From a bacterium (GTDB taxonomy: Bacteria; Bacillota; Clostridia; TANB77; RGIG9151), in NCBI GenBank assembly GCA_963635575.1, contig CAVHFU010000008.1:12575-44574 (forward strand): DNA of 32,000 nucleotides, written 5' to 3'. Positions 3,892-28,837 of the stretch are shown here, piece by piece; position 1 is the stretch's first letter; each line of letters begins with the position of its first letter. The notes under the pieces are model-generated. The model was not told where the DNA came from, searched no databases, and saw only the letters and a list, made by a program, of their open reading frames with translations. A program made the position numbers and the translations under genes.

Positions 3892-3966
3892 GCTCCCATA
3901 GTTTAATGGATAAAATGGCAGATTCCGATTCTGCAGATGTAGGTTCGATTCCTACTGGGAGTGCCA
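3892..3966 (+). tRNA. tRNA-Arg (anticodon CCG), CCA encoded
   Basis: Hand-folded cloverleaf of 75 nt. Acceptor GCTCCCA/TGGGAGT, D-arm GTTT-AATGGATA-AAAT, anticodon stem GCAGA/TCTGC with loop TTCCGAT (CCG). 4-nt variable loop, T-arm GTAGG-TTCGATT-CCTAC, discriminator G, CCA. Confidence 0.85.
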
Positions 3967-6574: not shown

Positions 6575-7215
6575 GCATATAGGAAAAAGCACATTCCAAT
6601 AAAATGACATGTTGCGGCTGCAACGATGAATAAGTGCCAAACCATATGGTGATATTTAAAACCTTTTTTTGCATAGAAAATAGCACCTATTGAATATAAA
6701 ACGCCACCTGCCACTATTAGTGATAATAGTACCGGGTTGGCTTTTTTCATTAATAAAGGAAAGAAAAATATAGCAGTCCATCCCATAATTAAATAAATCG
6801 TAAGTGAAACTTTAGGCATTGATTTTCTTGCTAAAGATTTGTAAAGTATACCGAAAAGTACCATTGCCCATTGAATTCCTATAATTACCCAAGCTTGCCA
6901 ACCTTTAATTACAGATAAGGCCACGGGGGTGTATGAACCTGCGATAGCTACATAGATAAAAATATGGTCCAATATATGAAATACGTCTTTATGAGGTGTA
7001 TCATGAGGCATACAATGATATAGCGTTGATACAAAAAACATAAAGAAAAGTGAAATACAAAAAACAGTTACGGCCACAACATCCATAATTGTTCCATATG
7101 TATAGGCTATTATAGAAACAATAGGCATACAAACAAGTACAGCGATAGCAGGAACTAAATGGGTTATGGCATTTGCAACCTCTTCTCCAAAAGATAATTT
7201 TATAGGTGATTTCAT
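6571..7215 (-). CDS. Hemolysin III / PAQR family membrane protein
   Basis: Track ORF 6571..7290, with the start trimmed to ATG 7215 (MKSPIKLSFGEEVANAITH...), which sits 7 nt after an AGGAGG RBS. Seven hydrophobic segments with the conserved His-containing motifs of the family (ANAITH, LYHCMPH, HHMVWHLF). Confidence 0.85.
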   Translation of the reverse strand: MKSPIKLSFGEEVANAITHLVPAIAVLVCMPIVSIIAYTYGTIMDVVAVTVFCISLFFMFFVSTLYHCMPHDTPHKDVFHILDHIFIYVAIAGSYTPVALSVIKGWQAWVIIGIQWAMVLFGILYKSLARKSMPKVSLTIYLIMGWTAIFFFPLLMKKANPVLLSLIVAGGVLYSIGAIFYAKKGFKYHHMVWHLFIVAAATCHFIGMCFFLYA

Positions 7216-7435
7216 ATACATACCTCCTTTAATTAAATTTTTTGTTCTATCTAATATATCAAAATAAAATCTAAAAGTAAATCCTTCCACATATAAAAGT
7301 ATTTGTAAAAAACAGCCGTTTTTTGTCGAAACTTTACCTTATTTTCTTTTACTTTCCACTAATTTATTTAAAAATTTTTTACGATAAGAAATATAGTTAG
7401 TTCCATTAAGTGAGTATTACACCATAAATAACCGC

Positions 7436-7464
7436 TTGAATATATGTGAGCTAGGGTTTAAAAT
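7436..7464 (+). promoter_or_regulatory. Sigma-A type promoter candidate for lon (TTGAAT-17 nt-TAAAAT)
   Basis: -35 TTGAAT at 7436..7441, a 17-nt spacer, and -10 TAAAAT at 7459..7464, about 35 nt upstream of the lon ATG. Confidence 0.5.
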
Positions 7465-7498
7465 ATTTATATGTACCGAAGGTGAAGGGGAGACTACT

Positions 7499-9919
7499 AT
7501 GGATGATATCAAAAAAATTATGAAAAGACAGATGCTACCTTTATTACCGCTTAGGGGGATAACAGTATTTCCTCATATGACGGTTCATTTTGACGTAGGC
7601 AGAACCAAATCTATTAAAGCAATTAGTGAGGCTATGCATAATCATCAATTAATTTTTTTAGTTACACAAACAGATGCGACCGTAGAAGAACCGGATGAAA
7701 ATGGTATATATAAAGTCGGAACCATTGCAGTTATTAGGCAAATACTACGTTTGCCTGGTGATGCTGTAAGAGTTTTAGTGGAAGGAATAAGTAGAGCAGA
7801 AATTGCAGAAGTTATTCAAACAGAACCATACTTTGAAGCAGAAGTATGTGAGAAAGTATATGTACGCGAAAAAAATGATAAAAATGAAGCTAAAGCTTTA
7901 ATGAGAAAAACAATATCGATATTTGAGGAATATGTAAATTTAAACCAGAAAATTAACCCTGAAATTTTTGCAAGGGTATCAGATATAAATGAACTTAGTG
8001 AGCTAAGCGATATTATTGCTGCAAATCTTACAATATCTACTGAAGATAAGCAACAAATTCTATCTGAATTTGATTCAAAAGTAAGACTTGAAAAATTAAT
8101 TTCTTGTTTAGCAAAAGAAATAGAAATTTTAAACTTAGAAAAAAACATAAGTGCCAAAGTAAAGCAACAAATAGACAAAGTGCAAAAAGAATATTATTTA
8201 AAAGAACAAATGAAAGCAATTCAAGATGAACTTGGAGATAAGGACGGAATTGCCGGAGAAATAGCAGAATACAGAGAAAAGTTTAAAGCACTTGAATTGC
8301 CGGAAGAAGTTGCAAAGAAAACAGAAAAGGAATTGGATAGACTACAAAAAATGCAGTCGGGTTCTGCTGAAGGGTCTGTAATAAAAAATTATTTAGACTG
8401 CATAGCAGAATTACCTTGGAATAAGAAAACAGAAGATTATATAGACCTTAAAAAGGCTAAAGAAATATTAGATAAAGACCATTTTGGACTTGAAAAAGTT
8501 AAAGATAGAATCTTGGAATATCTTGCAGTAAAGAAGATGACTAAATCTTTAGATGGTCCTATCTTATGCTTATATGGACCTCCGGGAGTAGGAAAAACTT
8601 CAATAGCTAAATCAATAGCTAAAGCTGTTAATAGAAATTATGTAAGACTTTCTTTAGGTGGAGTAAAGGATGAAGCTGAGATAAGAGGACATAGAAGAAC
8701 TTATGTAGGGGCTATGCCGGGCAGAATAATTAACGCAATGAAACAAGCCGGAAGCAAAAACCCACTAATTCTACTTGATGAAATAGATAAAATGAGTTCT
8801 GATTATAAAGGAGATACAGCGTCTGCAATGCTTGAAGTATTAGACGCAGAGCAAAACTTCTCATTTAGAGACCATTTCTTGGAAGTTCCGTTTGATTTAT
8901 CAGATGTAATGTTTATAATGACTGCTAATAGTCTAGATACAATTCCAAGACCACTTTTAGATAGAATGGAAATAATAACATTATCAAGTTACACTGGTGA
9001 AGAAAAATTAAATATTGCAAGTAAATATTTAATTCCAAAGCAAATGGAAAAACACGGACTTGCAAAGAATAGCCTTACAATAAGTCAATCTGTTATAAAG
9101 GAAATAATAGACGGATACACAAGAGAGGCAGGAGTAAGAACACTAGAAAGAGAAATTGCTACTATTTGCAGACGTTCGGTAAGGGAAATATTAGAGGAAA
9201 ATGTTAAAAAAGTTGTTATAACTCATAAAAACCTTGAAAATTATTTAGGTCCGGTAAAGGTTATGCATGATAAAGCTAATAAAAAGAATGAAATCGGTAT
9301 AGTAACCGGTCTTGCTTGGACTGCTGTTGGAGGGGAAATTCTTAATATTGAAGTAAATACAATGCCAGGAGCAGGAAGACTTGAATTAACTGGCCAACTC
9401 GGAGATGTAATGAAGGAATCAGCAAAAGCTGGATTTACCTATATAAGGTCTATTGCAAATCGTCTGGATATACCTGGAGATTTTTATAAAAATATAGATA
9501 TTCATATTCATATACCGGAGGGAGCAACACCTAAGGATGGTCCGTCTGCCGGAATTACTATGACAACAGCAGTTATTTCTGCATTAACAGGAATACCTGT
9601 AAAACATGATGTTGCAATGACAGGCGAAATTACACTAAGGGGTAGGGTATTACCTATCGGAGGACTTAAGGAAAAAGTTTGTGCAGCGTATAGAGCAGGA
9701 ATAAAGACTATAATTATTCCAAAAGATAATGAAAAGGACTTAGAAGAAATATCTGAAAATATAAGAAATAAGCTTACTTTTGTACCTGCGACAACAATGG
9801 AAACCGTGCTAAAGACTGCATTGGTTAGAGATGCATTTGTAAATAATGCCGATTCGCCAAAGAGAGTAATTGAATTTACCGGTACAACAGCATATCATTC
9901 TGAAGTTGTTAAGCAATAG
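7499..9919 (+). CDS. lon: ATP-dependent Lon protease (LonA)
   Basis: Track ORF 7436..9919, with the start moved to ATG 7499 (MDDIKKIM...) after a GAAGGGGAG RBS. Lon N-domain (LPLLPLRGITVFPHM), Walker A GPPGVGKTS and the protease serine motif PKDGPSAGIT. Confidence 0.95.
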   Translation: MDDIKKIMKRQMLPLLPLRGITVFPHMTVHFDVGRTKSIKAISEAMHNHQLIFLVTQTDATVEEPDENGIYKVGTIAVIRQILRLPGDAVRVLVEGISRAEIAEVIQTEPYFEAEVCEKVYVREKNDKNEAKALMRKTISIFEEYVNLNQKINPEIFARVSDINELSELSDIIAANLTISTEDKQQILSEFDSKVRLEKLISCLAKEIEILNLEKNISAKVKQQIDKVQKEYYLKEQMKAIQDELGDKDGIAGEIAEYREKFKALELPEEVAKKTEKELDRLQKMQSGSAEGSVIKNYLDCIAELPWNKKTEDYIDLKKAKEILDKDHFGLEKVKDRILEYLAVKKMTKSLDGPILCLYGPPGVGKTSIAKSIAKAVNRNYVRLSLGGVKDEAEIRGHRRTYVGAMPGRIINAMKQAGSKNPLILLDEIDKMSSDYKGDTASAMLEVLDAEQNFSFRDHFLEVPFDLSDVMFIMTANSLDTIPRPLLDRMEIITLSSYTGEEKLNIASKYLIPKQMEKHGLAKNSLTISQSVIKEIIDGYTREAGVRTLEREIATICRRSVREILEENVKKVVITHKNLENYLGPVKVMHDKANKKNEIGIVTGLAWTAVGGEILNIEVNTMPGAGRLELTGQLGDVMKESAKAGFTYIRSIANRLDIPGDFYKNIDIHIHIPEGATPKDGPSAGITMTTAVISALTGIPVKHDVAMTGEITLRGRVLPIGGLKEKVCAAYRAGIKTIIIPKDNEKDLEEISENIRNKLTFVPATTMETVLKTALVRDAFVNNADSPKRVIEFTGTTAYHSEVVKQ

Positions 9920-9937
9920 ACTTAGTTGGTGATAGAA

Positions 9938-10201
9938 ATGAAAAACTATGTGTACATTTTAGAATGTAGTGACGGCAGTTTATATACAGGTTGGACAAAT
10001 GATTTAGAAAAGCGAATTGAAAAGCATAATAGTGGCGAAGGAGCTAAGTATACAAGAGGTAGAACACCTTGCAAATTAGTTTATTTTGAAGAATATGAAA
10101 CAAAAATTGAAGCCACTAAAAGAGAATTTGCAATAAAGAAATTGACTCGAAATGAAAAAATGAAACTTATACAAACAAAACCCACCAAGCATAATGCTTA
10201 G
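9938..10201 (+). CDS. GIY-YIG nuclease family protein (UPF0213/YhbQ-like)
   Basis: MKNYVYILECSDGSLYTGWTNDLEKRIEKHNSGEGAKYTRGR is the GIY-YIG signature. Start set at ATG 9938 within track ORF 9926..10201. Confidence 0.85.
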   Translation: MKNYVYILECSDGSLYTGWTNDLEKRIEKHNSGEGAKYTRGRTPCKLVYFEEYETKIEATKREFAIKKLTRNEKMKLIQTKPTKHNA

Positions 10202-10210
10202 TGGGTTTTT
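10181..10210. terminator. Bidirectional intrinsic terminator shared by the convergent GIY-YIG and DUF975 genes
   Basis: CCCACCAAGCA (10181..10191), loop TAA, TGCTTAGTGGG (10195..10205; one mismatch), then TTTTT. An A-rich run lies on the other side. The stem overlaps the TAG stop of the GIY-YIG gene. Confidence 0.7.
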
Positions 10211-10216
10211 ATATTG

Positions 10217-10945
10217 TTAGAATTGCTCTAAAATTAAAGGCTCGTCATTTGGATTATCTTTATTTTCATATATTTCTTTTACTTTTAAATAAAAATGTGA
10301 GGTCGCAGTTTGCATATATGGATATAACCATATATACCCTATTCCACAAGTAAAAGTAGCAAGTAATATCCATCCTATAAATGAAAGTTGAAGTAAGAAA
10401 TAATTCCATTTATAACCTTTCATCATAGCTTCACTTCGTTTAATAGCTTCTGTTGCTGAAATGTCAGGTTCTTCTGCCATAATAAATAAAGTCATTGAGT
10501 ATCCGTAAGCCTTAATAATTCCGGGAATGATTAGAAGCAAGGACCATAAGAAAGTATAAAGTCCAATTAAAAAACCGGCAAGAATAGAATTGCCAAATGA
10601 TTTTTTATACCCGTCAAATAAATTGATGATGTCAGGTTTTTGACTTTTTGAAAACATTAAAAAGTAACTGGTAAAACCTAAAGATAAAGGAATTATTAAT
10701 AAGTTAATTGCTGCGCTTAAAATGGAATTTATGCTTTGCATTATAATAACAACTGCGTTAGTATCTTTAATTATGAGGGATAGTATTTTTGTTAGTACAG
10801 CCGTAATAAGAAAAGTCATTCCGGATAGTGCAGAAGAAGCTGCGATAGTTATTGCAATAAATAATAAAGTCATAATTGCTGGATTACTCCATTTCCCTTT
10901 AAGTTGGGATAAAGCTTTCTTTTTTTGTTCAGATATTGAAATCAT
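10217..10945 (-). CDS. DUF975 family integral membrane protein
   Basis: Track ORF 10217..10972, with the start trimmed to ATG 10945 (MISISEQKKKALSQLKGKWSNP...) behind a GGAAAGGAGAA RBS. The N-terminal motif and multi-TM layout are typical of DUF975. Confidence 0.75.
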   Translation of the reverse strand: MISISEQKKKALSQLKGKWSNPAIMTLLFIAITIAASSALSGMTFLITAVLTKILSLIIKDTNAVVIIMQSINSILSAAINLLIIPLSLGFTSYFLMFSKSQKPDIINLFDGYKKSFGNSILAGFLIGLYTFLWSLLLIIPGIIKAYGYSMTLFIMAEEPDISATEAIKRSEAMMKGYKWNYFLLQLSFIGWILLATFTCGIGYIWLYPYMQTATSHFYLKVKEIYENKDNPNDEPLILEQF

Positions 10946-11071
10946 TAGAATTCTCCTTTCCAAAAACTTCATTTAAATAGTAACATTTTAAATAATAAAA
11001 GTAAAGATTTATTAAAGTGACTTTGTATTTTGCCGATAGAGTGTGTGAAAGGGCTTTTGAGGTGAAAAAAT

Positions 11072-13534
11072 ATGATTAAAAAAGCAGTTGTTACAAGTAT
11101 ATTAACATTAGGTTTGGTTTCATTCGCATATGCATCAAATAATATTACATACTACGGAATACCAAACGGTGACCAAAAAATTAATTTAATAAATTTTAAT
11201 GATGTACTAAGCCAAGGTGAAGGATATTGGGCAAAGTCAGCTATTTATCAAATATCTTCTTTAGATATAATGCAAGGAATGGCAAATGGGGTGTTTTCTC
11301 CAACAACAAAGGTTACAAATGAACAAGCTATAACTACTGTCTTAAACTCAATGGGAAAAGCAACCGAAGTAAATGACCAAAAAGTAATTTCAAATTATTG
11401 GTCGGATAAATATATAAAATATGGAATAAAGAATGGGCTTATTACAGGAAAAACAGTTATGAGACTATCTGAAATAGCTGGAAATTTAGACACGATGAAG
11501 AAAAAGGGAGTGTATGTAAGAGATGCGGCGATAACACGTGAAGAAATGGCTGAGCTTATTGCAAAGGCATTTTCCTTATCATCGACTTCTGCAGATGAGA
11601 AAAAGCCACTTGAATTCATGGATAGTAACCAAATAGATACAACAAAAAAATCATATGTTGATGCAGTTTCAATGAATGGAATAATGGTTGGTTCAGATGA
11701 CAATATGTTTAACCCGAAAAGTGGATTGACTAGGGCAGAATTAGCTCAGATATTAAAAAATTGCGAATCATATATTTTAGCAAACTTAGGAGTTACTAAA
11801 CATACAGGATTTATAGAGAGCGTAGGAACTGGTAGTATTTTAATTTCAGATGAAAACGGAGATAGCATAACGGTAGATTTAACAGGAAAAAATATTCCGA
11901 CATTAAGAAATAACATACTAACAGGTACATATTCATTAAAAAGTTCTGACGAAATTGAGTATTACGTAGATGCTAAAAAGAATGTAAAATTCATAAGAGT
12001 AACTGATGCAAGTATATATGGTGAAGAACAAGAGGAACAAGAAAAGAACCAAAAACAAGGAATTGTTACAGGTAACAGTCCATATTTTTATGAAATAGCT
12101 ATAAAGGATAAAAACGGAAACGTAGAAAAATATACTTACGGAAGATGGACCGAGATTTATAAAGATGGTAAAGAAACATCTGCAAGTAGCATTATGCAAG
12201 GGGATACAGTATATCTTGAGTTTGATAATTTGGGAGACTTAGTTGTTATAAGAGGTGTAACTAATGCAGTTATAAGTTATGCTACTGTTACAGAAATTAG
12301 TGGTACAAAAGTTACTATGGTACCTGATGATGGTAAAGCCGAGAAGTATGACTTGAACAATGTGCCAATTTATAAAAATGGTGAAGAAATATCTGTGGAC
12401 AACTTGCATAATGGTGAGTATGCAAAACTAAGTTTGTCACAAAATAAGCTAATTAAAGTAGAAATTGTTGTTGACGAAAGAAGTTGTGAGGCAATATACA
12501 AAGGATATATAAGTGATATTAATTTAATTCAAGACAGAATTATTATTAGAAATCCGTCACAATTAAAAGATGGAAAGTGGACTAAATTAACAGATAATTT
12601 TATAACATTACCATTAGATAGAAATATGCAAATTAGCTATGAAGGAATTAATATGGCTAAAAATGAATTAGGTGAAAAACAAGTAGGAAAGTTTGCATAC
12701 ATAGCAGCAAGAAAAGATACTGAAGTATTAGAAAAAGTGAAAGCTATGAATATAGGAATAAAAGGAAAAGAAGAAGTTATAACAGGTGAAGTTTCTAAGT
12801 TTAATGAAAGTACAGGAGAATTAAGAATTAGTGGTAACTCTATAAAACCATATGTGGATGAAAATACGGTACTAGTGATAAATAATAAAATAGTAACAAA
12901 GGCCGATTTTAGTAAAGGCGATAACTTAGCAGTAGTTGTTTCTAAAGATGATAATGGAGATTATATCGCTAAACTAATAACAACAATAGACGAAGTGGAT
13001 AGCGAAAGTAGAGATGTGTATGCATATTTCGGAAAAGTAAAGTCTATTGACGAAGGCAATGAAGTAATAATGAATATAAGTGCAAGGTATGAAGATGAAG
13101 AATGGATTATTGGAAAAGAAAGAAACGCATCTTTTGTTATAACATCAAACACAAGAATATTTAATGAGACCGAACCTCTTAACTTTGATGAATTTAATAA
13201 GGAATATAAAGGCAAAGAGATATGTATTGTTGCATATGGAGATGAAGCTGTTATAATTACAGTTGTTTCAATCACAGATACACCATATATATTTATGGGA
13301 AGCGTAGATGATGTGGAAACGGATAAATTTACTGTTACTGATGTCGAGATTTATGACTTAGAAAATGAAGAATGGACTGAAAGCACAAAAGAAGAAGTAA
13401 GCATTTCAGTAAATACAGCAATTACAAAGAACGGAAAGTATGCAAAGTCTTCAGATATAAAATACGGACAAGAAGTCGTAGTAATAAAGCCTGATGAACA
13501 AAGTAGTGCAGCAGTAGTTTTACTTAATGATTAG
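11072..13534 (+). CDS. Secreted SLH-domain cell-wall protein (three N-terminal SLH repeats, large C-terminal region of unknown function)
   Basis: Signal peptide MIKKAVVTSILTLGLVSFAYA. SLH-like repeats lie roughly in residues 40-235 (e.g. FNDV..WAKSAIYQ...GVFSPTTKVTNEQA and FMDSNQID...SYVDAVSMNGIMVGSDDNMFNPKSGLTRAELAQIL). The remaining ~580 aa has no motif I recognise. Confidence 0.8.
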   Translation: MIKKAVVTSILTLGLVSFAYASNNITYYGIPNGDQKINLINFNDVLSQGEGYWAKSAIYQISSLDIMQGMANGVFSPTTKVTNEQAITTVLNSMGKATEVNDQKVISNYWSDKYIKYGIKNGLITGKTVMRLSEIAGNLDTMKKKGVYVRDAAITREEMAELIAKAFSLSSTSADEKKPLEFMDSNQIDTTKKSYVDAVSMNGIMVGSDDNMFNPKSGLTRAELAQILKNCESYILANLGVTKHTGFIESVGTGSILISDENGDSITVDLTGKNIPTLRNNILTGTYSLKSSDEIEYYVDAKKNVKFIRVTDASIYGEEQEEQEKNQKQGIVTGNSPYFYEIAIKDKNGNVEKYTYGRWTEIYKDGKETSASSIMQGDTVYLEFDNLGDLVVIRGVTNAVISYATVTEISGTKVTMVPDDGKAEKYDLNNVPIYKNGEEISVDNLHNGEYAKLSLSQNKLIKVEIVVDERSCEAIYKGYISDINLIQDRIIIRNPSQLKDGKWTKLTDNFITLPLDRNMQISYEGINMAKNELGEKQVGKFAYIAARKDTEVLEKVKAMNIGIKGKEEVITGEVSKFNESTGELRISGNSIKPYVDENTVLVINNKIVTKADFSKGDNLAVVVSKDDNGDYIAKLITTIDEVDSESRDVYAYFGKVKSIDEGNEVIMNISARYEDEEWIIGKERNASFVITSNTRIFNETEPLNFDEFNKEYKGKEICIVAYGDEAVIITVVSITDTPYIFMGSVDDVETDKFTVTDVEIYDLENEEWTESTKEEVSISVNTAITKNGKYAKSSDIKYGQEVVVIKPDEQSSAAVVLLND

Positions 13535-13543
13535 GGGGATAAT

Positions 13544-14980
13544 ATGAAAAAGTTTTTAATGCTTTTAGCGTCAATTTTAATGTTTTCAACGGCCTATGCA
13601 TATGAGCCTTCTATTACTCAGCAGGTTGCGGGAAACAAGAATTTAAATTGTAAGGAAGTAGTTTTTATATCCGGAAAGCCGGTTGAAATGGAAGGGACAT
13701 TGACTGTAAGTAATTCAGGAAAAAGTTCAACGTTAGCGGAATCCTATACGTATAAGTTAGAAGATGAAGAAGGAAATACACTATCTCGCCAACTTACGTT
13801 TTCGATTGCTTCAAGCGAAAAAAATAATGGTCAAGTTTCTAAAGTATGGGATTTAACTAAGTTTAGTGAAAGCATAACTATAGGTGCAACAACATATACT
13901 TTGGAAAAGTATGATTTCGGAAGAACTGAGTTAGACGATGTAAAGCCGGTAGGTACTTATTTTGCCGGCAACTTAAATATAAGTAAGACATATAGTGATG
14001 GAACTGAAAAAGGGAAAATAAAAATTGTCGGCTCCGGCTCATCTTACGGTTATAATACTTGTTGGGCGAATAATGAGGTTGTTAATATGACATATACAAT
14101 TTCAGGCACATCAGAAACAGGTACGAGTTGGACTGGTAAGTATAGAACAACAACGTCTAATACAGATAAAAAGAATATTGTGTATATTGAAAACAAACCA
14201 ACAGAAATAAGTTTTGATGGCGGATTTATGCTATCAGAAAGTAATGTAAGTACACTTAGATATTCTTCAGAATTACCTGAGTTTTATGGAACAAAGATGC
14301 TAAATTATATAGTTACAGATGAAGGGTCGTTTAAGTATGAATCATTTCCTGTCCAAACAAGGCTGGCAAACTATTCTCTAAAAGGAATAAAAGGGCACTG
14401 GGGAGAAAAAGCTCTACGTCAAGCATTTGCACTTGAATATATGGATGAATGGAAAGACAATACAACACCAAATAGCGGGGTAACAAGGGGAGAATTTGCA
14501 AAGATTATTGCGCTTGCACTTAAATTAGATATGAATAACAACACGAAGAAAACCAATACTACAACAAATACATCAGTCAAAGAGCAATTAGTATATAAAG
14601 ATGTCCCGGAAACAAATGAATATTATAAGTACATTATGGCTTTAACTCAGAAGGGTGTAGTGAAAGGAACAGGAAATTCAAGATTTCAACCAAATGCAAT
14701 AATAAGTAGAGCAGAGGCTGTTACAATGATTATAACTGCATTAGGATTTGAAGATAAAGCACCGGAGCCATTACCAATACTAAATTTTAACGATAATTCA
14801 GAAATACCAAAATGGTCAGAGAAATATATATATATGGCAAATAAAATAGGACTTATAAACGGAGATGAGTACGGAAACGTAATGCCAACAAAGGCATTAA
14901 CAAAAGCAGAAATAGCTACTATTACGAATAATATGGTTAAATATATAATTGAAGAATTAGGCGAGGAATATATTTTGTAA
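13544..14980 (+). CDS. Secreted SLH-domain cell-wall protein (three C-terminal SLH repeats)
   Basis: Signal peptide MKKFLMLLASILMFSTAYA. The C-terminal ~200 aa contains three SLH repeats (HWGEKALRQAF...GVTRGEFAKII; YKDVPETNEYYKYIMALTQKGVVKGTG..FQPNAIISRAEAVTMI; FNDNSEIPKWSEKYIYMANKIGLINGD). It starts 9 nt after the previous gene, with a GGGGG RBS. Confidence 0.8.
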   Translation: MKKFLMLLASILMFSTAYAYEPSITQQVAGNKNLNCKEVVFISGKPVEMEGTLTVSNSGKSSTLAESYTYKLEDEEGNTLSRQLTFSIASSEKNNGQVSKVWDLTKFSESITIGATTYTLEKYDFGRTELDDVKPVGTYFAGNLNISKTYSDGTEKGKIKIVGSGSSYGYNTCWANNEVVNMTYTISGTSETGTSWTGKYRTTTSNTDKKNIVYIENKPTEISFDGGFMLSESNVSTLRYSSELPEFYGTKMLNYIVTDEGSFKYESFPVQTRLANYSLKGIKGHWGEKALRQAFALEYMDEWKDNTTPNSGVTRGEFAKIIALALKLDMNNNTKKTNTTTNTSVKEQLVYKDVPETNEYYKYIMALTQKGVVKGTGNSRFQPNAIISRAEAVTMIITALGFEDKAPEPLPILNFNDNSEIPKWSEKYIYMANKIGLINGDEYGNVMPTKALTKAEIATITNNMVKYIIEELGEEYIL

Positions 14981-22128: not shown

Positions 22129-22157
22129 AGTATATGACTTATAGAAGATGTTGTCAA
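22129..22157 (-). promoter_or_regulatory. Sigma-A promoter for the oxidoreductase operon (TTGACA-17 nt-TATACT, minus strand)
   Basis: On the minus strand, -35 TTGACA is at 22157..22152, followed by a 17-nt spacer and -10 TATACT at 22134..22129, about 45 nt upstream of the gamma-subunit ATG. Confidence 0.65.
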
Positions 22158-22178
22158 GGAACAGACCCAAAATAAAAT
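22151..22178 (+). promoter_or_regulatory. Candidate plus-strand promoter toward the pilin operon (TTGTCA-16 nt-TAAAAT)
   Basis: TTGTCA at 22151..22156, a 16-nt spacer, and TAAAAT at 22173..22178. Its -35 overlaps the minus-strand -35 back to back. It would give a leader of about 185 nt, and I found no stronger match closer to 22368. Confidence 0.3.
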
Positions 22179-22367: not shown

Positions 22368-22562
22368 ATGAAGTTAAAAAAATTGGTAAAAAAAGGTGGA
22401 ATCGCTGATATTGTCACTTTGATGATTATTGTAGGTCTAGTTATCGCGTTAATTATCGCAGTTGTTCTTCCTATGGTAAGGACAGCACGTACTGCCGGTG
22501 GAAGTGCAGACGAAGGAATTAATGAAGCTAATAGCACTATTGATTTTATACGTAGTCACTAA
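22368..22562 (+). CDS. Pilin-like small protein 1 (class III signal peptide-like N-terminus, Flp-sized)
   Basis: 64 aa, with an AAAGGAGGAG RBS 7 nt upstream. Sequence MKLKKLVKKGG-IADIVTLMIIVGLVIALIIAVVLPMV-RTARTAGGSADEGINEANSTIDFIRSH: a basic leader, GG, an approximately 25-residue hydrophobic helix and a short polar tail. Confidence 0.8.
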   Translation: MKLKKLVKKGGIADIVTLMIIVGLVIALIIAVVLPMVRTARTAGGSADEGINEANSTIDFIRSH

Positions 22563-22597
22563 TAATGCGAGAGCCTAGTAATAAGCTTGTTATTAAA

Positions 22598-22636
22598 AAC
22601 CGGCATTAATGAAACTATTATTGCCGGTTTTATAAT
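22598..22636 (+). terminator. Terminator-like hairpin between pilin genes 1 and 2
   Basis: AAACCGGCA (22598..22606), approximately 15-nt AT loop, TGCCGGTTT (22622..22630), followed by TATAAT/A-rich sequence. The T-tract is short and partly within the stem, so termination is probably partial. Confidence 0.5.
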
Positions 22637-22674
22637 AAAAGTAAAAAAATTCTCGTTTGAGGGAGTAGATAGAT

Positions 22675-22848
22675 ATGAAAAGAAAACAAAAAGGCGGAAT
22701 AGAAGGAATTATAGCTACTATAATTATGGCGGGACTTGTTCTAGCTCTTATTATTGCAGTAATATTGCCTATGACTAGAGGAACTAAAGTTACTGGAGAC
22801 ACAGGAAAAAATAAAATAACCGAATTAAACAGCAGATTAGGTGGCTAA
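22675..22848 (+). CDS. Pilin-like small protein 2 (absent from the supplied ORF track; 57 aa)
   Basis: Hand translation from ATG 22675 (GAGGGAG RBS upstream) gives MKRKQKGGIEGIIATIIMAGLVLALIIAVILPMTRGTKVTGDTGKNKITELNSRLGG, with stop TAA at 22846..22848. It is a clear paralog of proteins 1 and 3. The track ORFs 22587..22778(+) and 22593..22802(-) are off-frame or antisense shadows of it. Confidence 0.8.
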   Translation: MKRKQKGGIEGIIATIIMAGLVLALIIAVILPMTRGTKVTGDTGKNKITELNSRLGG

Positions 22849-22879
22849 GGTGAGAAATTTATTTAAAGAGGTGATTACG

Positions 22880-23059
22880 GTGAATAGAAAATTAAAAGGT
22901 GGAATGGAAGGTATTATTGCAGCCATTATTTTAGCTGGACTTGTAGTAGCACTTCTTTTAAGTGTTGTTATGCCTATGTCTAATGAGGGAGATAAACTAA
23001 TAGACAAGACTACCAATAAGTTAGTAACCCAACAAGGAAATATGCGACCAACAAATTAA
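22880..23059 (+). CDS. Pilin-like small protein 3 (GTG start)
   Basis: Track ORF 22841..23059. The start is placed at GTG 22880, 6 nt after AGAGGTGA, giving (M)NRKLKGGMEGIIAAIILAGLVVALLLSVVMPMSNEGDKLIDKTTNKLVTQQGNMRPTN. Its leader length then equals that of paralog 2. Confidence 0.75.
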   Translation: MNRKLKGGMEGIIAAIILAGLVVALLLSVVMPMSNEGDKLIDKTTNKLVTQQGNMRPTN

Positions 23060-23094
23060 ACAAATTATACCTATAAAAAGGGAGTGTAGGGAAA

Positions 23095-23601
23095 ATGAGT
23101 GAAAAAGCTTTAAAATTAAAAAAAGGTGGTTTGGATACCATTATTGCATATATCGTGGTAATGCTACCTCTTTTGTATGTTCTTGTTTATATAATTGCTA
23201 CTATATATCATTTTTCCGTACAAATGTATATGAACCAAGTAGTAAAAGAAGCAACAGTTATGGCGAGTACTTATGGTGAGGTAACGACTGGTCATGCAGA
23301 TTACATAGAGGAAAAACTAAAAAATATACTAGATAAAGATGAACATGGAAATGTATGTAGAATCGAGTACTATGTAAGACCATTTGATGAGAATAGCGGA
23401 GTAGTCGGAGCCGTACTAGGACCATATGATACAATTCCTACTGTTAAAAAAGCTGACATAATAGGAATTTATGTTACATCAATAAAGCCGTCAATATTAG
23501 GAAATGTCTCTAGTTTTAGTTTATTTGGTGGTGGTTCAGATACAAATAATTTGTATTATACTTCTTATAGAGAGGAGATTATAAGAAATGAACACCCGTG
23601 A
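23095..23601 (+). CDS. TadE-like pseudopilin/minor pilin candidate
   Basis: 168 aa. MSEKALKLKKGG-LDTIIAYIVVMLPLLYVLVYIIATIYHF..MNQVVKEATVMAS has the same basic-GG-hydrophobic N-terminus as the three small proteins. It resembles the TadE-like N-terminal domain pattern (G-x-x-x-[ED]-x-x-x-x-x-P-hydrophobic ... polar-A-x-x-x-A). Confidence 0.65.
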   Translation: MSEKALKLKKGGLDTIIAYIVVMLPLLYVLVYIIATIYHFSVQMYMNQVVKEATVMASTYGEVTTGHADYIEEKLKNILDKDEHGNVCRIEYYVRPFDENSGVVGAVLGPYDTIPTVKKADIIGIYVTSIKPSILGNVSSFSLFGGGSDTNNLYYTSYREEIIRNEHP

Positions 23602-24571
23602 TATTATAAAAAATAATAAGGGCAGCGGGTTGGGAGTTATCTTATACGGAGTAACTTTGTTACTTATATTGATTTTCGTAGCAGTAAATATAGTTAATGC
23701 GAAAGTTATTGAAAATGGATATAATTCTTTAAGGGACGCCGTGCAATCCGCATCTACCGGTTCTGTTATTCATTTATTAACTAAGGAAAGTAGCACTAGC
23801 ACACAGGCTCAAAAAAATATTATTAGTGGAGATAAATATGACATATATCTTCAGTTGGCCTTAGGGTATATTATAAATAGAAATACTAACGCAATAAACA
23901 ATACTTATGCTCAGTCCGGTGAATTAAATAACTTCATAAAGTTAGACCACCAAAAAGTAGTAAATGAAACTATGGCGCTACTAGAAAATGCAATAATAAG
24001 GAGGAAAGAGGCTAGTACGATAAATGATACCAATAAATATAAAATAATGATGTTCTTTATAGAACCTTACTATGATGATAATACAAGCAAAAAATTTTTC
24101 CATATAGTGGCTTATGGAAATGGGGACTATGATCTTAATCGCGGAATCCAAGAAGAAATAGCGGAAGATATGGTTAGAAGTGATGACACAGATGACTTGA
24201 AGATTGTATATAAAAAAGTAGAAAGTTCTATAAATAATATAGTTAATTGTGGACATGACGGTATGGATGAAGCTGATAAAACATCTTATGGTATGAGTAC
24301 TAGTTTTGAAATAAATTTGAATGCTGATGGCTCTAATGATTATGATAAATTAATTAGAGAAATGGAAACATATCCTCATTACTTAATAGTAGTAAAGGAT
24401 TTTGCACTTCCAACTATATTCGATGGCGTAGAAACTAATAGCGGTAATCCTGGAATAAAGAGTGTATTTACTAGTTTATCCGGTGACGGTTCCTTATCTT
24501 CACCAATGTGTGCGCTAAATACAGGTAAAATTCAAAGACAGACGGAGGATAAAGGCTGGAGCCATAGATAA
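23588..24571 (+). CDS. TadG-like (TadE/G-like N-terminal domain) pilus-associated protein candidate
   Basis: 327 aa, overlapping the previous gene by 14 nt, with a GAGAGGAG RBS. The N-terminus NNKGSGLGVILYGVTLLLILIFVAVNIVNAKVIENGYNSLRDAVQSAS resembles the Tad 'TadE/G-like' motif (hydrophobic helix then L..A.D.A). I do not recognise the remainder. Confidence 0.55.
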   Translation: MNTRDIIKNNKGSGLGVILYGVTLLLILIFVAVNIVNAKVIENGYNSLRDAVQSASTGSVIHLLTKESSTSTQAQKNIISGDKYDIYLQLALGYIINRNTNAINNTYAQSGELNNFIKLDHQKVVNETMALLENAIIRRKEASTINDTNKYKIMMFFIEPYYDDNTSKKFFHIVAYGNGDYDLNRGIQEEIAEDMVRSDDTDDLKIVYKKVESSINNIVNCGHDGMDEADKTSYGMSTSFEINLNADGSNDYDKLIREMETYPHYLIVVKDFALPTIFDGVETNSGNPGIKSVFTSLSGDGSLSSPMCALNTGKIQRQTEDKGWSHR

Positions 24572-24573
24572 TT

Positions 24574-25086
24574 ATGAAAAAGGATTTAATATTTACATTT
24601 GTCTTATTTTTAATACAATGTATTTTAGTAACAGCAATAAAGGGTTTTACTTACCCTTTATTGTTGTTATTTTTAGTTTTTGGAATTTTTACTTATATTT
24701 CAATAATTGACTGGAGAACGGGTCTTATATCTGTAGAATTAAATATCGGTGTTTTTGTGTTATCTGCATTATATGCTTTTTTTAGTTCTATGTCGTTAAA
24801 AGTTATTGGGATTAATTTTTTATGTTTTGTTTTGCCATTTATATTAATAGAAGCATTTTTTCAACTAGTTATAAATAGAGGAAAAGATCCGGAAAAGTTT
24901 TTAGTTGGTGGGGGAGATATATTTCTTTTTGCTAGTATGTCGATGCTTCTTAGCACATTTGGCATGATGATTATGTTATTTTTTGCTTGCTTATTTAGTT
25001 TAATTGCATCTAAAATAATAAAAAAGAGTTTAATTCATTTTGCACCATTTATTCAAATTGGATTACTTATAGCATTATTTTTCTAA
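24574..25086 (+). CDS. A24 family prepilin peptidase (short TadV/CpaA/FlaK-like form, no methyltransferase domain)
   Basis: 170 aa and polytopic. The first catalytic Asp context is YISIIDWRTGLIS (about D46) and the second is LVGGGDIFLFASM (about D115), matching the two-aspartate A24 signature. It starts 2 nt after the previous stop. Confidence 0.8.
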   Translation: MKKDLIFTFVLFLIQCILVTAIKGFTYPLLLLFLVFGIFTYISIIDWRTGLISVELNIGVFVLSALYAFFSSMSLKVIGINFLCFVLPFILIEAFFQLVINRGKDPEKFLVGGGDIFLFASMSMLLSTFGMMIMLFFACLFSLIASKIIKKSLIHFAPFIQIGLLIALFF

Positions 25087-25114
25087 ATTAAAATAATTTT
25101 TAGGGGGAAATAAA

Positions 25115-27670
25115 ATGTTAATATTATCTTTTTTGGTTCCGGTATTACTGTGGTTACTGGCCATAGCAGTATGCGAAATTTTTCCTTTTGGAGAGTATAC
25201 ATTACTTACATCTGATATGTTTTTTCAGTATACTTATTTTTTAGAGTTTTACCAAAGGGTATTACAAGAAGGAATTGATGTATTTTACTCCTTTGCATAT
25301 GGTTTAGGCTCAGAAACATTGGGACTAATAGCATATTATTTAGCTAGTCCCCTAAATTTTATACTTTATCTCTTTAGTAAAGAAAATATAACGGAGGCTA
25401 TATTAACTATTAATCTAGTTAAAATTGGTTTGTGTGGCTTAAGTTTTGGAATATTTCTAAAAGCAAAGTTTAATAAAAAATCTTGGATTAATATAGGATT
25501 TTCCACTTGTTATGCACTTATGGCATATAACATGGTTTATCAATTTAATATAATGTGGTTGGATGGAGTAATTTTATTACCTATTATAGTTTTAGGAATT
25601 GATAGACTCTTTGAAAAAAATAAGCCTTTTTTATTTTACTTTAGCTTGCTTGTTGCGATAATTTCTAATTGGTATATTGGGTGGATGTTATGTATCTTTT
25701 CGTTTTTATATGTAATATATTTATCATCGCCTAATTTTAGAGAAAATATAAAGAAGATAGGTAAGTTAATTTTAGTTGGAATATTATGTGCAGGTTCGGC
25801 TATGATTACTATACTACCAACTGTTTATTCTCAATTACAAGTTGAATCCAGATTGGATTTAGTAAAAGATAATATTGGAAATATAAACTTTAAAGCTTTA
25901 GATATCTTATCTAAGTTTATTACGGGCTCATTTTACTATGGGGAAATAACTAGCAAAAATGTATATTCTGAGTTCTTAAATTTGCCAAATGTTTTTTGCG
26001 GTATTTTTATTACTCTTTTAGTCATATTATATTTTACAAATAAAAAAATAGACAAAAAAGATAAGATTAAAGATGGCGTTATTTTGACGATTATGTTTGT
26101 AAGTTGTTTATTTAACGCTATTAATATTATTTGGCATGGATTTAGTATTAACGCGTGGTTTCCGTATAGATATTCATTTATTATAAGTTTTGTAATGATT
26201 TTTATTGCATATAAGAGTTATTGGAAACTAGATGATATTGATAATAAAAAAACATTAAAGATATTTGGAATAATAGCGCTAATTTGCTTTGTTATCGAAA
26301 AAATGGAATATACTTATTTAGTAGATGGGGTAATATATGTAACATTGCTGATTTTGGGGATGTATATTTATGTACTTATATGTTGTAAAAATAAGAAATA
26401 CTTTATAGGTTTATTGGATTTTATTATTTGTTTTGAATTGCTTATAAACGCCATCATTGTATTCCCCAATTTTTTATATAGAAGTAGAAATGAAATTTAT
26501 GCTACAGAAGCAGCTTTTAATACGGCGATAGAAAGTATAGAAGAAAATGACAATGGATATTTTAGAGTGGAAAATAATATTGGTCAAGCTCCTCTTCAGT
26601 TTGGGAAAAATGTAATAGGAGTAAGTAATAGCAGTAGTACTGCTATGGAAAAGGGATTTGCATTGCTAGACGGATTGGGATTTTATAGAATTAGTAATGT
26701 TACTTTGAATTACAATTTTACTACTCCATTTAACGATTCTATTTTAGGGATAAAGTATCTTGTAGGAGATGGAGAAAAAACTTATTATAAGGAATATGAT
26801 AAGGAAAATAAAATTTGGATAAATCCTGATGCTTTATCTTTAGGGTTTATGGTAAATGGGAAAATAGATAATGTAAAAGATTTATTAAATTTAGCCGGAA
26901 CTTCAAGAGACCCATTTGAAAATCAAAATAATATAGCTCAGAATATGATTAAAAACGGAAAAGAAATCTTTAATAAAATAAATATTTCTTCGATAGAGCG
27001 TAATAATTTAATTGAGAGTGAAGGAAGATTTTATCAGGAAAGTAAGCTTGAACCGTCATCCATTAAATTTGAAATTGATGTTGAAGAAGAAAAAGATATT
27101 TATTTAGAAATATATGGAAAAGGAGCTGATGAAAAGAAAGAGAAGCTATATGTAAATGGTAATGACTTTTTAGGAAAAGAAAAATATGTAGAGGATTTTG
27201 GTATTATTAATCTAGGTAAATTTAAAAAAGGTGAAAAAGTAGAAATTGAAATTAAGTATTTAACTACTGGTGAGTTTCCGGTAAAAAGCGTATATGCGTA
27301 TTATTTTAATGAAGATGAATATAAGGAATTAATAAGTGAATTAAAAAATAATCAGCTAGATATTTATAATATGACTAGTTCGAAGTTAGAAGGAAGAGTT
27401 AATGCGACTAATGATAAAGAAATTTTACTTATAACATTTTTATATAATGGCTTTATGAAAGTAAAGGTAGATGGCGAAGAGGTAAAACCGGTAGAGGTTT
27501 TGGATTCACTAATTGGAATTAAATTATCTGAAGGAGAACATACGATAGAATTATGGTATGAGCCGACATTAGTAAAAATAAGCGGATTGGTTTCGTTGGT
27601 GTTCATTATTAGCTCTTGCTTGGTAATTTCATTGTGTTTTAGAGAAAAAGGTTATAAAAAGGAGTTTTAA
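25115..27670 (+). CDS. YfhO family GT-C membrane glycosyltransferase
   Basis: 851 aa. The N-terminus IFPFGEYTLLTSDMFFQYTYFLEFYQRVLQEG..FYSFAYGLGSETLGLIAYYLASPLNF closely follows the YfhO pattern (compare B. subtilis YfhO as I recall it: YPFG.KTLL..DM..QY..F...). About 13 TM segments, a large extracytoplasmic C-terminal domain and a final TM anchor. Confidence 0.85.
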   Translation: MLILSFLVPVLLWLLAIAVCEIFPFGEYTLLTSDMFFQYTYFLEFYQRVLQEGIDVFYSFAYGLGSETLGLIAYYLASPLNFILYLFSKENITEAILTINLVKIGLCGLSFGIFLKAKFNKKSWINIGFSTCYALMAYNMVYQFNIMWLDGVILLPIIVLGIDRLFEKNKPFLFYFSLLVAIISNWYIGWMLCIFSFLYVIYLSSPNFRENIKKIGKLILVGILCAGSAMITILPTVYSQLQVESRLDLVKDNIGNINFKALDILSKFITGSFYYGEITSKNVYSEFLNLPNVFCGIFITLLVILYFTNKKIDKKDKIKDGVILTIMFVSCLFNAINIIWHGFSINAWFPYRYSFIISFVMIFIAYKSYWKLDDIDNKKTLKIFGIIALICFVIEKMEYTYLVDGVIYVTLLILGMYIYVLICCKNKKYFIGLLDFIICFELLINAIIVFPNFLYRSRNEIYATEAAFNTAIESIEENDNGYFRVENNIGQAPLQFGKNVIGVSNSSSTAMEKGFALLDGLGFYRISNVTLNYNFTTPFNDSILGIKYLVGDGEKTYYKEYDKENKIWINPDALSLGFMVNGKIDNVKDLLNLAGTSRDPFENQNNIAQNMIKNGKEIFNKINISSIERNNLIESEGRFYQESKLEPSSIKFEIDVEEEKDIYLEIYGKGADEKKEKLYVNGNDFLGKEKYVEDFGIINLGKFKKGEKVEIEIKYLTTGEFPVKSVYAYYFNEDEYKELISELKNNQLDIYNMTSSKLEGRVNATNDKEILLITFLYNGFMKVKVDGEEVKPVEVLDSLIGIKLSEGEHTIELWYEPTLVKISGLVSLVFIISSCLVISLCFREKGYKKEF

Positions 27671-27671
27671 T

Positions 27672-28150
27672 ATGCGAAAATATTGTAATTACTTTATAAT
27701 ATTAGCTGTTGCTATTATATTACTAATACCAATGTTTCTTAATGAATATCCAGATTTTAAATCTGATGCATCATTTCATATTGCAAATGTGTTAGCTATT
27801 AAAGAACAGATTTCGCAAGGAAGATGGGAGAGCTTAATTTTAGGTAAAATAGCTAATAATTTTGGATATGGTACAAGAATATTTTACCCTCCTCTCTCTC
27901 AAACGGTAACGGCTTTTATTAGTTATTTTATTTGGGATACAACTTAGAAAAAGGCAATGAGATTATAGACTTATATGAGAATTCTAATGGCTTCTTGGAA
28001 GCTAAAATAAAAGAGAATGGAAGATATATTTTAACACATAAACTTACGATTATACAGAGAATTGCTAGGGTAATTTCGTTATTCACATGTATTAGTTTAG
28101 TTGTAATATATATTGCTAAATTTAGATATAGAAATAACATTAATGAATAG
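27672..28150 (+). pseudogene. Remnant of a second GT-C/YfhO-like membrane glycosyltransferase (N-terminal 91 codons fused out of frame to about 72 C-terminal codons)
   Basis: ORF 27672..27947 encodes TM1 plus a loop with an Asp/His motif (PDFKSDASFHIANVLAIKEQISQGRW...GYGTRIFYPPL), typical of the start of large GT-C enzymes, but stops after 91 aa. ORF 27932..28150 is in another frame and has only a TTG start. It encodes ...ENGRYILTHKLTIIQRIARVISLFTCISLVVIYIAKF, mirroring the YfhO C-terminal end (EGEHTIELWYEPTLVKISGLVSLVFIISSCLVISLCF). Confidence 0.6.
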
Positions 28151-28231
28151 ACAGTATATTTTAACAAGAAAATAACGAAGAAGCAAAACTAGGATATAAA
28201 ATACATTTTTTTTGTCAAATTGCATATAAAT

Positions 28232-28263
28232 ATATTGACGTACGTCAATATGTACGCTAAAAT
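28232..28263 (+). promoter_or_regulatory. yefM-yoeB promoter (TTGACG-17 nt-TAAAAT) overlapped by a perfect 20-bp palindromic operator candidate
   Basis: ATATTGACGTACGTCAATAT (28232..28251) is a perfect palindrome. -35 TTGACG is at 28235..28240 and -10 TAAAAT at 28258..28263. A second GTAC core sits at 28252..28255. Confidence 0.7.
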
Positions 28264-28286
28264 ATATTTATGAGGAGGAGATAAAA

Positions 28287-28538
28287 ATGACAAATGTAAA
28301 TATAACTAATTTTCGAAAAAATGTATATGAATTACTAGAAACGGCTATAAAATACAATGAACCGATTAATATTTCTACTAAAAACGGTAATGCAGTTGTA
28401 TTGTCTGAAGATGATTATAAAAATATCATGGAAACATTATATATATCATCTATACCTGGTTTAAAGGAAGAAATTGTAGAAGGATTAAATGCGAATGATA
28501 GTGAGTTCGTGCCGGAGGACGAGGTGGATTGGAACTGA
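28287..28538 (+). CDS. yefM: Phd/YefM family antitoxin
   Basis: 83 aa, with a GAGGAGGAG RBS. ITNFRKNVYELLETAIKYNEPINISTKNGNAVVLSEDDYKNIMETLYI is the YefM fold signature. Confidence 0.9.
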   Translation: MTNVNITNFRKNVYELLETAIKYNEPINISTKNGNAVVLSEDDYKNIMETLYISSIPGLKEEIVEGLNANDSEFVPEDEVDWN

Positions 28539-28804
28539 TGTATGAAATAGAATACAGAAAACAAATTTTAAAAGATATCCCCAAAATAAAGGAAATAGGA
28601 CTAAATAATAAGGTGGCACAATTAATTGATGTCATAAAAAGTAACCCTTACCAAACACCACCACCATATGAGAAATTACTGGGTGATTTGAATGGTGCGT
28701 ATTCAAGGAGAATTAATAATAAACACAGGCTTGTATATCAAGTGTTAGAGGAAAAAAAGAAAGTTAGGATATTAAGTGTATGGTCACATTACGAAAATAT
28801 ATAG
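28538..28804 (+). CDS. yoeB: Txe/YoeB family toxin (ribosome-dependent mRNA interferase)
   Basis: Start taken at ATG 28538, which overlaps the antitoxin TGA by 1 nt. The C-terminal SRRINNKHRLVYQV....V.ILSVWSHYE matches YoeB catalytic-region conservation. Confidence 0.9.
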   Translation: MYEIEYRKQILKDIPKIKEIGLNNKVAQLIDVIKSNPYQTPPPYEKLLGDLNGAYSRRINNKHRLVYQVLEEKKKVRILSVWSHYENI

Positions 28805-28811
28805 AAGTTTT

Positions 28812-28837
28812 AAAACACGTGTAAAAGCGTGTTTTTT
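28812..28837 (+). terminator. Intrinsic terminator after yoeB
   Basis: AAAACACG (28812..28819), 8-nt loop, CGTGTTTT (28828..28835), with the T-run continuing to 28837. Confidence 0.7.

Follow-up and report, generated by a model that had tools for sequence, protein, structure and literature searches.

We analysed a stretch of 32,000 nucleotides (nt) from a bacterium of the Clostridia (contig CAVHFU010000008.1, positions 12,575 to 44,574; hereafter the window), with a focus on an operon at window positions 22368 to 28150. We conclude that this operon is probably the pilin, pseudopilin and peptidase half of a divergent, lineage-specific Tad pilus (type IVc, Flp-type), for which the motor is presumably encoded elsewhere in the genome and to which a YfhO-family glycosyltransferase is added as a recurrent accessory. 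The central observation comes from a related locus (L014), where the same genes are contiguous with a CpaF-type motor; we thus take the system to be Tad-type and the window to hold its pilin and peptidase half only.

In the mechanism that we propose, the peptidase would cleave a basic leader of 5–13 residues after an invariant Gly-Gly and leave a mature N-terminus of the form [IVLM]-[E/D/A]-x-I-[IV] on a hydrophobic helix of 27 residues. Polymerisation would need a CpaF/TadA ATPase, a TadB/TadC-like platform, and CpaB- and TadZ-like proteins; in the lineage of the window, rearrangement would have separated these motor genes from the pilin genes, and we presume that they are located elsewhere in the genome. 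YfhO would most likely glycosylate Ser/Thr residues in the exposed parts of pilins or pseudopilins, with an undecaprenyl-phosphate sugar as the donor; this would take place on the external side of the membrane, before or during assembly.

All open reading frames (ORFs) of the operon, mapped from the window sequence, are on the forward strand. The map agrees with an earlier reading of this DNA that was made from the letters alone (the sequence-only reading), which had described co-directional and tightly packed frames: pilin 3 and the 168-residue protein are 35 nt apart, a 14-nt overlap follows, and then come gaps of 2 nt, 28 nt and 1 nt. The features are as follows.

22151..22178, + strand: candidate sigma-70-type promoter, TTGTCA-16-TAAAAT (consensus scan, 10/12 positions)
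22368..22562, + strand: small pilin 1, 64 residues (ORF map; orthologues in all loci)
22585..22642, + strand: hairpin and U-run between pilin 1 and pilin 2 (fold energy, z score)
22675..22848, + strand: small pilin 2, 57 residues, leader MKRKQKGG (ORF map, homologue alignment)
22880..23059, + strand: small pilin 3, 59 residues, leader (M)NRKLKGG (orthologue lengths, ribosome-binding site)
23095..23601, + strand: 168-residue pseudopilin-like protein (N-terminus, predicted fold, TadE position in L014)
23588..24571, + strand: 327-residue pseudopilin-like protein (N-terminus NKGSG/LGVIL, TadF/TadG position)
24574..25086, + strand: predicted A24 prepilin peptidase of TadV/CpaA type, 170 residues (PF01478, Asp motifs)
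25115..27670, + strand: YfhO-family GT-C glycosyltransferase, 851 residues, intact (PF09586)
27672..27947 and 27932..28150, + strand: two short ORFs, 91 and 72 residues (no Pfam or YfhO-profile match)

The candidate promoter lies within the 244-nt gap between pilin 1 and the divergent por operon; the count of sigma-70-type sites is not above the shuffled expectation, so that the evidence for this site is weak. For pilin 3, the most likely start is the GTG at 22880 (alternative start 22841), with the ribosome-binding site AGAGGTG 7 nt upstream and orthologues of 57–59 residues; pilin 3 thus does not overlap pilin 2.

Processing signature, peptidase and pseudopilin-like proteins

We aligned the N-termini of 31 small pilins from 13 non-redundant loci. 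Gly-Gly is invariant (31/31), and the leader before it comprises 5–13 residues and is rich in Lys and Arg. After Gly-Gly come [IVLM]-[E/A/D]-x-[IV]-[IV] and a hydrophobic stretch of about 27 residues, mostly with P-M at its end. Pilin 1, for instance, has the leader MKLKKLVKKGG, a hydrophobic helix of 27 residues ending in LPM and a variable polar tail. The tails of the small pilins contain 20% Ser and Thr compared to 11% in the other proteins of the window. The sequence-only reading had noted that the 168- and 327-residue proteins share the basic N-terminus with glycines and a hydrophobic stretch. This observation extends to the families: the pattern is invariant across the 31 small pilins, 41 homologues of the 168-residue protein and 20 homologues of the 327-residue protein (here as G-S/D/G-G), and GG with an adjacent acidic or polar residue is common to all three kinds of protein. 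The features expected of type IV pilin-like proteins with a class III signal peptide are present, namely a short basic leader, Gly at −1, a hydrophobic helix of at least 20 residues and an A24 peptidase in the same operon. A double-glycine bacteriocin leader was considered and rejected by reasoning, as the leaders are too short and too basic, a membrane helix follows, and the operon encodes an A24 and not a C39 peptidase.

The 170-residue protein is predicted to be an A24 prepilin peptidase of TadV/CpaA type, as had been proposed from the letters alone. It matches PF01478 with 36.9 bits (cutoff 26.5) and has both Asp motifs, with the catalytic residues Asp46 (IIDWRTG) and Asp115 (GGGD), and it lacks a methyltransferase domain. 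The motifs DW[KRQ]TG and GGGD are invariant in 11 homologues. A search of solved structures with the peptidase found nothing. Within its coding region lies a 19-bp terminator-like stem (24627-24671), which is probably a chance match.

The hairpin between pilin 1 and pilin 2 has a fold energy of −29.4 kcal/mol (z −4.2) and a U-run after the stem. The same hairpin is found in L007 and L009, and L011 and L015 have hairpins of different sequence in this position; it is absent from other loci and is missing where the gap measures just 14–41 nt. The hairpin is probably a partial terminator or attenuator that sets the ratio of pilin 1 to the downstream products, that is, of major to minor subunits. 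Its recurrence after pilin 1 fits pilin 1 as the major subunit, which it probably is, with attenuated read-through into the rest of the operon.

The 168-residue protein starts with KKGG/LDTII and occupies the position of TadE in the complete locus L014. Among the 41 aligned homologues, G11, G12, D14 and P25 are invariant. The AlphaFold2 model (predicted local distance difference test, pLDDT, 83) consists of an N-terminal helix (residues 2-60), a short helix and a four-stranded sheet, so the predicted fold has the general lollipop outline of pilins. In the 327-residue family, G12 and G14 are invariant, and the protein occupies the TadF/TadG position in L014. Its structural model begins with a helix (residues 13-57) and was too poor for a structure search (pLDDT 55). 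L013 encodes a version of this protein with 667 residues, whose extra C-terminal half may be an adhesin domain.

Complete, pilin-only and motor-only loci

The families of the 327-residue protein, the 168-residue protein and the peptidase comprise about 60–76 clusters each among 5.8 billion proteins, and all are unnamed (74 clusters for the 168-residue family; 76 homologues of the 327-residue protein, none named). They stem from metagenomes or metagenome-assembled genomes of human, chicken, rumen and deer gut that carry the label Clostridia or Eubacteriales. The 327-residue family occurs in just 7 of 185,579 species genomes. A HMMER profile search with the 168-residue family retrieved 27 proteins among 1.84 billion representatives, and the most distant of these keep the N-terminus [KR]-G-G/[IVLA]-[DES]-T. 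The order of the six genes from pilin 1 to the peptidase, to which we refer as the cassette, is conserved in L001-L017 and L022-L026, about 20 loci that belong to one narrow clade of uncultured Clostridia, and the cassette has at least five flanking contexts there.

In L014, the cassette follows directly after cpaB, tadZ, cpaF/tadA and two polytopic membrane genes. The full order is CpaB-like protein, TadZ-like protein, ATPase, two membrane proteins, three pilins, the homologues of the 168- and 327-residue proteins, the A24 peptidase, one gene (303 residues, Cu_amine_oxidN1 domain) and a YfhO of 867 residues. Identity to the window is 39% for the 168-residue homologue, 45% for the 327-residue homologue and 56% for the peptidase. 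The ATPase (501 residues) matches T2SSE (PF00437, E 2.6e-20), and its best NCBIfam model is the TadA family. Among solved structures, it is closest to CpaF of the Caulobacter Tad motor (E 1.5e-24), followed by an archaeal GspE-like protein (5e-12) and by FlaI and VirB11 (about 1e-7). The CpaB/RcpC-like protein (299 residues) has a SAF domain above cutoff, an RcpC match and a match to TIGR03177 below cutoff (E 8.6e-10). The protein at the TadZ position (278 residues) is MinD/ParA-like, with AAA_31 and MinD-like matches below cutoffs. CpaB- and TadZ-like genes were seen only in the relatives L014 and L019. The two polytopic membrane proteins have 319 and 387 residues; the first has a weak T2SSF match, and the two show weak mutual similarity in that region (E 0.009). 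Solved-structure searches with these two proteins found nothing.

The reverse situation was found in L018 and L019, which overlap at 99.5% identity and together give the order traG fragment, ispG, coaD, two small membrane genes, cpaB, tadZ, tadA, tadB, tadC and dnaE. This is a motor-only locus without pilin genes. The pilin-only locus L013 also lies beside ispG and coaD, and its ispG is 83% identical to that of the motor-only locus; thus, both half-loci exist in related organisms. When metagenomes were scanned with the L014 ATPase, the only matches were three close relatives (81–91% identity), none of them from the lineage of the window.

We compared the gene neighbourhoods within 10 kb of the cassette. 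The contexts are as follows.

Class A, por operon, cassette then YfhO, rplM: window, L007, L008, L025
Class B, por, YfhO then cassette, rplM or KilA-N: L002, L023
Class D, dCMP deaminase, cassette, HDOD and dnaX: L004-L006, L009, L010, L016
L011: cassette downstream of leucine-rich repeat (LRR) proteins
L013 (17-4134): five small pilins, the 667-residue version of the 327-residue protein, then ispG and coaD
L022: cassette, then three membrane ORFs

No ATPase or platform gene was found in the neighbourhoods of classes A, B and D or of L011, L013 and L022. The cassette of pilins and peptidase thus recurs as a unit in relatives and mostly does so without a nearby ATPase. The sequence-only reading had reasoned that the present adjacency would be a mere rearrangement break if relatives always carried the arrangement directly beside tadA/tadB/tadC; L014 does so, whereas most relatives do not have it beside the motor. 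Of the two options it had offered, a satellite cassette with linked glycosylation that is assembled by machinery encoded elsewhere is favoured by the complete locus, with YfhO two genes downstream, and by the motor-only locus.

Some loci have additional genes beside the cassette. In L022 (2619-4873), three polytopic membrane ORFs (221, 247 and at least 260 residues) without a Pfam match follow the peptidase. Their N-terminal loops look GT-C-like by eye; a GT-C assignment was dropped as it had no Pfam support. L015 (293-7645) encodes an LRR/SLH surface protein of 2450 residues just upstream of the cassette; in L011, too, LRR proteins are encoded upstream.

The genes of the window appear to be maintained. 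In the comparison to L008 (dS about 1), the ratio of nonsynonymous to synonymous divergence (dN/dS) is 0.12–0.21 for the genes of the 168-residue protein, the 327-residue protein, the A24 peptidase and YfhO. The dN/dS of YfhO is 0.17–0.21. The genes are therefore under purifying selection and are maintained in a lineage without an adjacent motor. In contrast to a uniform divergence, window positions 22368-27670 and L007 positions 7209-12528 show a mosaic, with dS of 0.03 for the 168-residue protein, 0.06 for the peptidase, 0.25 for YfhO, 0.33 for the 327-residue protein and, as the highest value, 0.74 for pilin 1. This suggests recombination, or diversification and turnover of the exposed parts.

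The YfhO enzyme and alternative readings

The assignment of the 851-residue protein to YfhO holds, with a match to PF09586 over the full length (E 2.5e-168, profile positions 1-835). Its closest NCBIfam models are PgfM1 (E 8e-83) and PgfM2 (E 2e-78), both below their cutoffs. The FPFG motif and the S/A-D-M motif, the latter with the Asp in the first extracytoplasmic loop, are conserved in six cassette-linked YfhOs, in which S/A-D-M is invariant. In the window, the gene starts 28 nt after the peptidase, and there is no terminator-like site in between. YfhO adjoins the cassette in three arrangements, downstream (class A), upstream (class B) and after one gene (L014). This linkage spans the deepest split of the family and was kept although the other flanks were wholly replaced. 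As classes A and B share the por...rplM frame, they amount with L014 to about two independent observations of linkage, not three. The sequence-only reading had treated YfhO as part of the unit. It is indeed a recurrent neighbour but not a constant one, as at least five other species-level loci have no YfhO next to the cassette; we therefore regard YfhO as a recurrent accessory and not as a core member. In one population, L026 (2469-4996), the cassette-linked YfhO is split into two ORFs (352 and 486 residues), as a frameshift pseudogene or by assembly error.

The sequence-only reading had described YfhO enzymes as known for the glycosylation of teichoic acids and not as members of pilus loci. 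Both points call for correction. YfhO enzymes glycosylate lipoteichoic acid (PMC5836110), but the streptococcal PgtC2 and PgfM1 O-glycosylate membrane-associated proteins, on extracytoplasmic tails that are rich in Ser/Thr and often C-terminal (PMC12041528). Furthermore, TfpW, a GT-C enzyme encoded right after pilA, glycosylates pilins of P. aeruginosa (bioRxiv 10.1101/2020.04.19.049825). Our literature search retrieved no paper that links YfhO with pilins and none that describes the arrangement of pilins and YfhO; a search for DUF4320 likewise retrieved none. From the genomic linkage and the sub-cutoff resemblance to PgfM1 and PgfM2, the pilins may be the substrate of the YfhO in the window.

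Several observations weigh against the reading as a Tad pilus with an associated glycosyltransferase. Flp_Fap has no match at E<=1 among the 31 small pilins, which have no Tyr after GG, and the canonical Flp motif G/XXXXEY (Glu+5/Tyr+6) is absent from them. In single and family-wide scans with Pfam and NCBIfam, neither Flp_Fap, TadE, N_methyl nor Class_IIIsignal matches any of the five putative substrates, and TadE matches neither the 41 members of the 168-residue family nor the 327-residue protein. The substrates have sub-threshold membrane-helix matches only (DUF6724, DUF7288, one archaeal Pilin_N, DUF4320); DUF4320 is the only recurrent weak match of the 168-residue family (9/41 members, best E 0.0015). 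The labels Flp-like and TadE-/TadG-like of the sequence-only reading are thus justified by position and context, but not by any Pfam or NCBIfam model. A Foldseek search of the 168-residue model against PDB gave a best E of 0.1 and no pilin-like structure. The 32-kb window contains neither a CpaF/TadA-type T2SSE ATPase nor a member of the T2SSF family. The absence of motor and platform genes, already noted from the letters, was borne out by a Pfam scan of the 26 other ORFs, by a search for the T2SSE Walker-A pattern and by tblastn with the L014 motor proteins. In L014 itself, the platform proteins are assigned by position and by the T2SSF match of E 0.2. With regard to YfhO, the gene is not beside the cassette in L004-L006, L009, L013 and L016, and the Ser/Thr content of the pilin tails does not track YfhO adjacency. 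Furthermore, the three YfhO groups are 23–35% identical to one another, compared to 39–56% for the cassette proteins, and may not be orthologous to one another. The YfhO pair of classes A and B may be orthologous, with a divergence roughly proportional to that of the cassette, whereas the YfhO of L014 may be a paralogue.

Alternatively, YfhO may have no function in the pilus, but act on lipoteichoic acid or another wall polymer, as CsbB/YfhO do in Bacillus, and be a neighbour by inherited synteny. The teichoic acid role of the family is established, about half of the arrangement classes have no YfhO beside the cassette, and the downstream and upstream arrangements with their shared frame may be a single event. 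The Ser/Thr richness of the pilin tails is independent of YfhO presence, and one cassette-linked YfhO, that of L026, is split. Against this stand the adjacency that was kept at 39–56% cassette identity with wholly different other flanks (L014 compared to the window), the short gap without a terminator in the window and the existence of protein-glycosylating YfhO enzymes. We see a wall-polymer role with linkage by inherited synteny as a possibility to be kept in mind, although not as the likelier explanation.

For a distinct motor-less system, the second option of the sequence-only reading, we found no positive support. In such a system, the Tad motor would have been lost and the processed helical proteins would stay at the membrane, where YfhO would modify them with sugar to form a surface coat or envelope component instead of a filament. 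It would fit with the lack of an ATPase or platform gene within 10 kb in the por-rplM, dCMP-deaminase-HDOD and other contexts, in which the cassette genes are under purifying selection nevertheless. However, the cassette of L014 is contiguous with a CpaF-type motor and a relative has a motor-only locus, so that split loci are the simpler explanation, and for a genome of megabase size the absence of genes from 32 kb is uninformative. Every type IV pilin characterised so far depends on an ATPase and a platform protein for its exit from the membrane, which also counts against a motor-less system. We consider it improbable; the more extreme reading, in which the lineage of the window has lost its motor and the processed, glycosylated helices serve it as a surface layer instead of a filament, is likewise unlikely. 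Least probable of all is that the cassette supplies extra substrates and a private peptidase to another filament machine (a Com pseudopilus or type IVa pilus): in type IVa pili it is normal for pilin-only operons to be remote from the ATPase, some prepilin peptidases serve more than one system (PMC6668835) and the L015 contig has a gene with a weak N_methyl match about 10 kb upstream, but leader and mature N-terminus are unlike the N_methyl type and do not match it, the cassette has its own peptidase, and the only contiguous machine that we saw is Tad-type.

Returning to the window, the two short ORFs after YfhO had been interpreted as the wreck of a second GT-C gene. We rejected this interpretation, as they have no Pfam match at E<=10 and their best alignment to a profile of the six YfhOs scores 2.9 bits. 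In the close relatives L007 and L025, YfhO is followed directly by rplM, and both the short ORFs and the Phd/YoeB pair are missing; relative to these loci, the short ORFs and Phd/YoeB form an insertion of about 1.1 kb (window 27672-28804). A terminator-like hairpin lies at 28812-28835. The ORFs at 27672..28150 are probably outside the pilin system. The neighbours are as previously described, with the por operon on the left and Phd/YoeB followed by rplM/rpsI on the right. The Pfam scan covered the remaining 26 larger ORFs of the window, which are of housekeeping type (comM-like, rny, pth, ung, lon, SLH proteins, der, plsY, gpsA, the por operon, Phd/YoeB, rplM and rpsI). Two of them encode large SLH-domain proteins (820 and 478 residues; 11072-14980), which shows that the organism has an S-layer-type envelope; any pilus would have to cross it. 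The sole Rfam match of the window is a tRNA gene at 3892-3963 (65.9 bits). Look-ups for an extension of the window gave nothing at the ComM end and a 4.3-kb contig without new genes at the right end.

Comparison with known systems and significance

The closest known systems are the Tad/Flp pili (type IVc), such as flp-tadV-rcpCAB-tadZABCDEFG of Aggregatibacter and cpa of Caulobacter. As in these, the cassette encodes several pilins of Flp size (mature length about 45–55 residues), two larger pseudopilin-like proteins and a short A24 peptidase without a methyltransferase domain, and L014 adds CpaB-, TadZ- and CpaF-like genes and two polytopic membrane proteins in Tad order. In contrast to Tad/Flp, the cassette proteins match neither Flp_Fap nor TadE, they carry the signature K-G-G/[IVLM]-E-x-I-I, in which the acidic residue is at +2, in place of G/XXXXEY, and a YfhO gene is attached. 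Furthermore, the pilin half of the window is apart from the motor half. Tad systems are usually encoded at a single locus and are often transferred, whereas prepilin peptidases may be shared or stand alone (Denise et al., PMC6668835). A stable split of pilin and motor halves is thus unusual for Tad, but it is ordinary for type IV filaments generally. For instance, pilin-only operons away from the assembly ATPase, such as fimU-pilVWXY1E, are found in type IVa pili. These minor-pilin operons resemble the window in this respect, but they have no peptidase, their N-termini are of the N_methyl type and they belong to a different filament class.

Regarding glycosylation, pilA-tfpW of the P. aeruginosa group IV pilins also encodes a polytopic GT-C glycosyltransferase directly beside pilin genes (bioRxiv 10.1101/2020.04.19.049825). 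However, TfpW is an arabinosyltransferase outside the YfhO family and acts on the type IVa pilus of a diderm, whereas glycosylation is a prediction for the present locus. The streptococcal PgtC2 and PgfM1/PgfM2 belong to the same YfhO Pfam family as the window enzyme, and PgtC2 and PgfM1 modify Ser/Thr-rich tails that membrane-anchored proteins expose outside the cytoplasm (PMC12041528), a topology that processed pilins would be expected to share. The proteins that these enzymes modify are adhesins, PrsA, PknB and others of this kind and not pilins, and in S. mutans the partner GT-A (PgfS/GtrB) is encoded nearby, whereas none is found in the window.

The kind of machine is known, and what is new are substrate families that no model recognises, a non-canonical processing signature and the linkage to YfhO. 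A whole Tad-type system of uncultured Clostridia escapes the standard models (Flp_Fap, TadE, T2SSF), and genome surveys that require an ATPase beside the pilins would overlook its pilin half. As the 168-residue family is very rare, it provides a compact and well-delimited set for the definition of new pilin and pseudopilin families. Extending our conclusion to the clade, we tentatively propose, at somewhat less than even confidence, that these gut and rumen Clostridia build Tad-type pili from an unclassified KGG/IE pilin family that is O-glycosylated by a dedicated YfhO-family GT-C enzyme. The YfhO linkage is a candidate for pilin glycosylation in a Gram-positive Tad system and would extend the recently found protein-glycosylating role of the family. 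If true, YfhO-glycosylated pilins would be the first link between YfhO and a pilus, and YfhO would be the first enzyme dedicated to pilin glycosylation in a Tad system of a monoderm. Glycosylation of pili is important in adhesion and in the defence against pilus-specific phages, from which pilin glycans give protection (bioRxiv 10.1101/150227).

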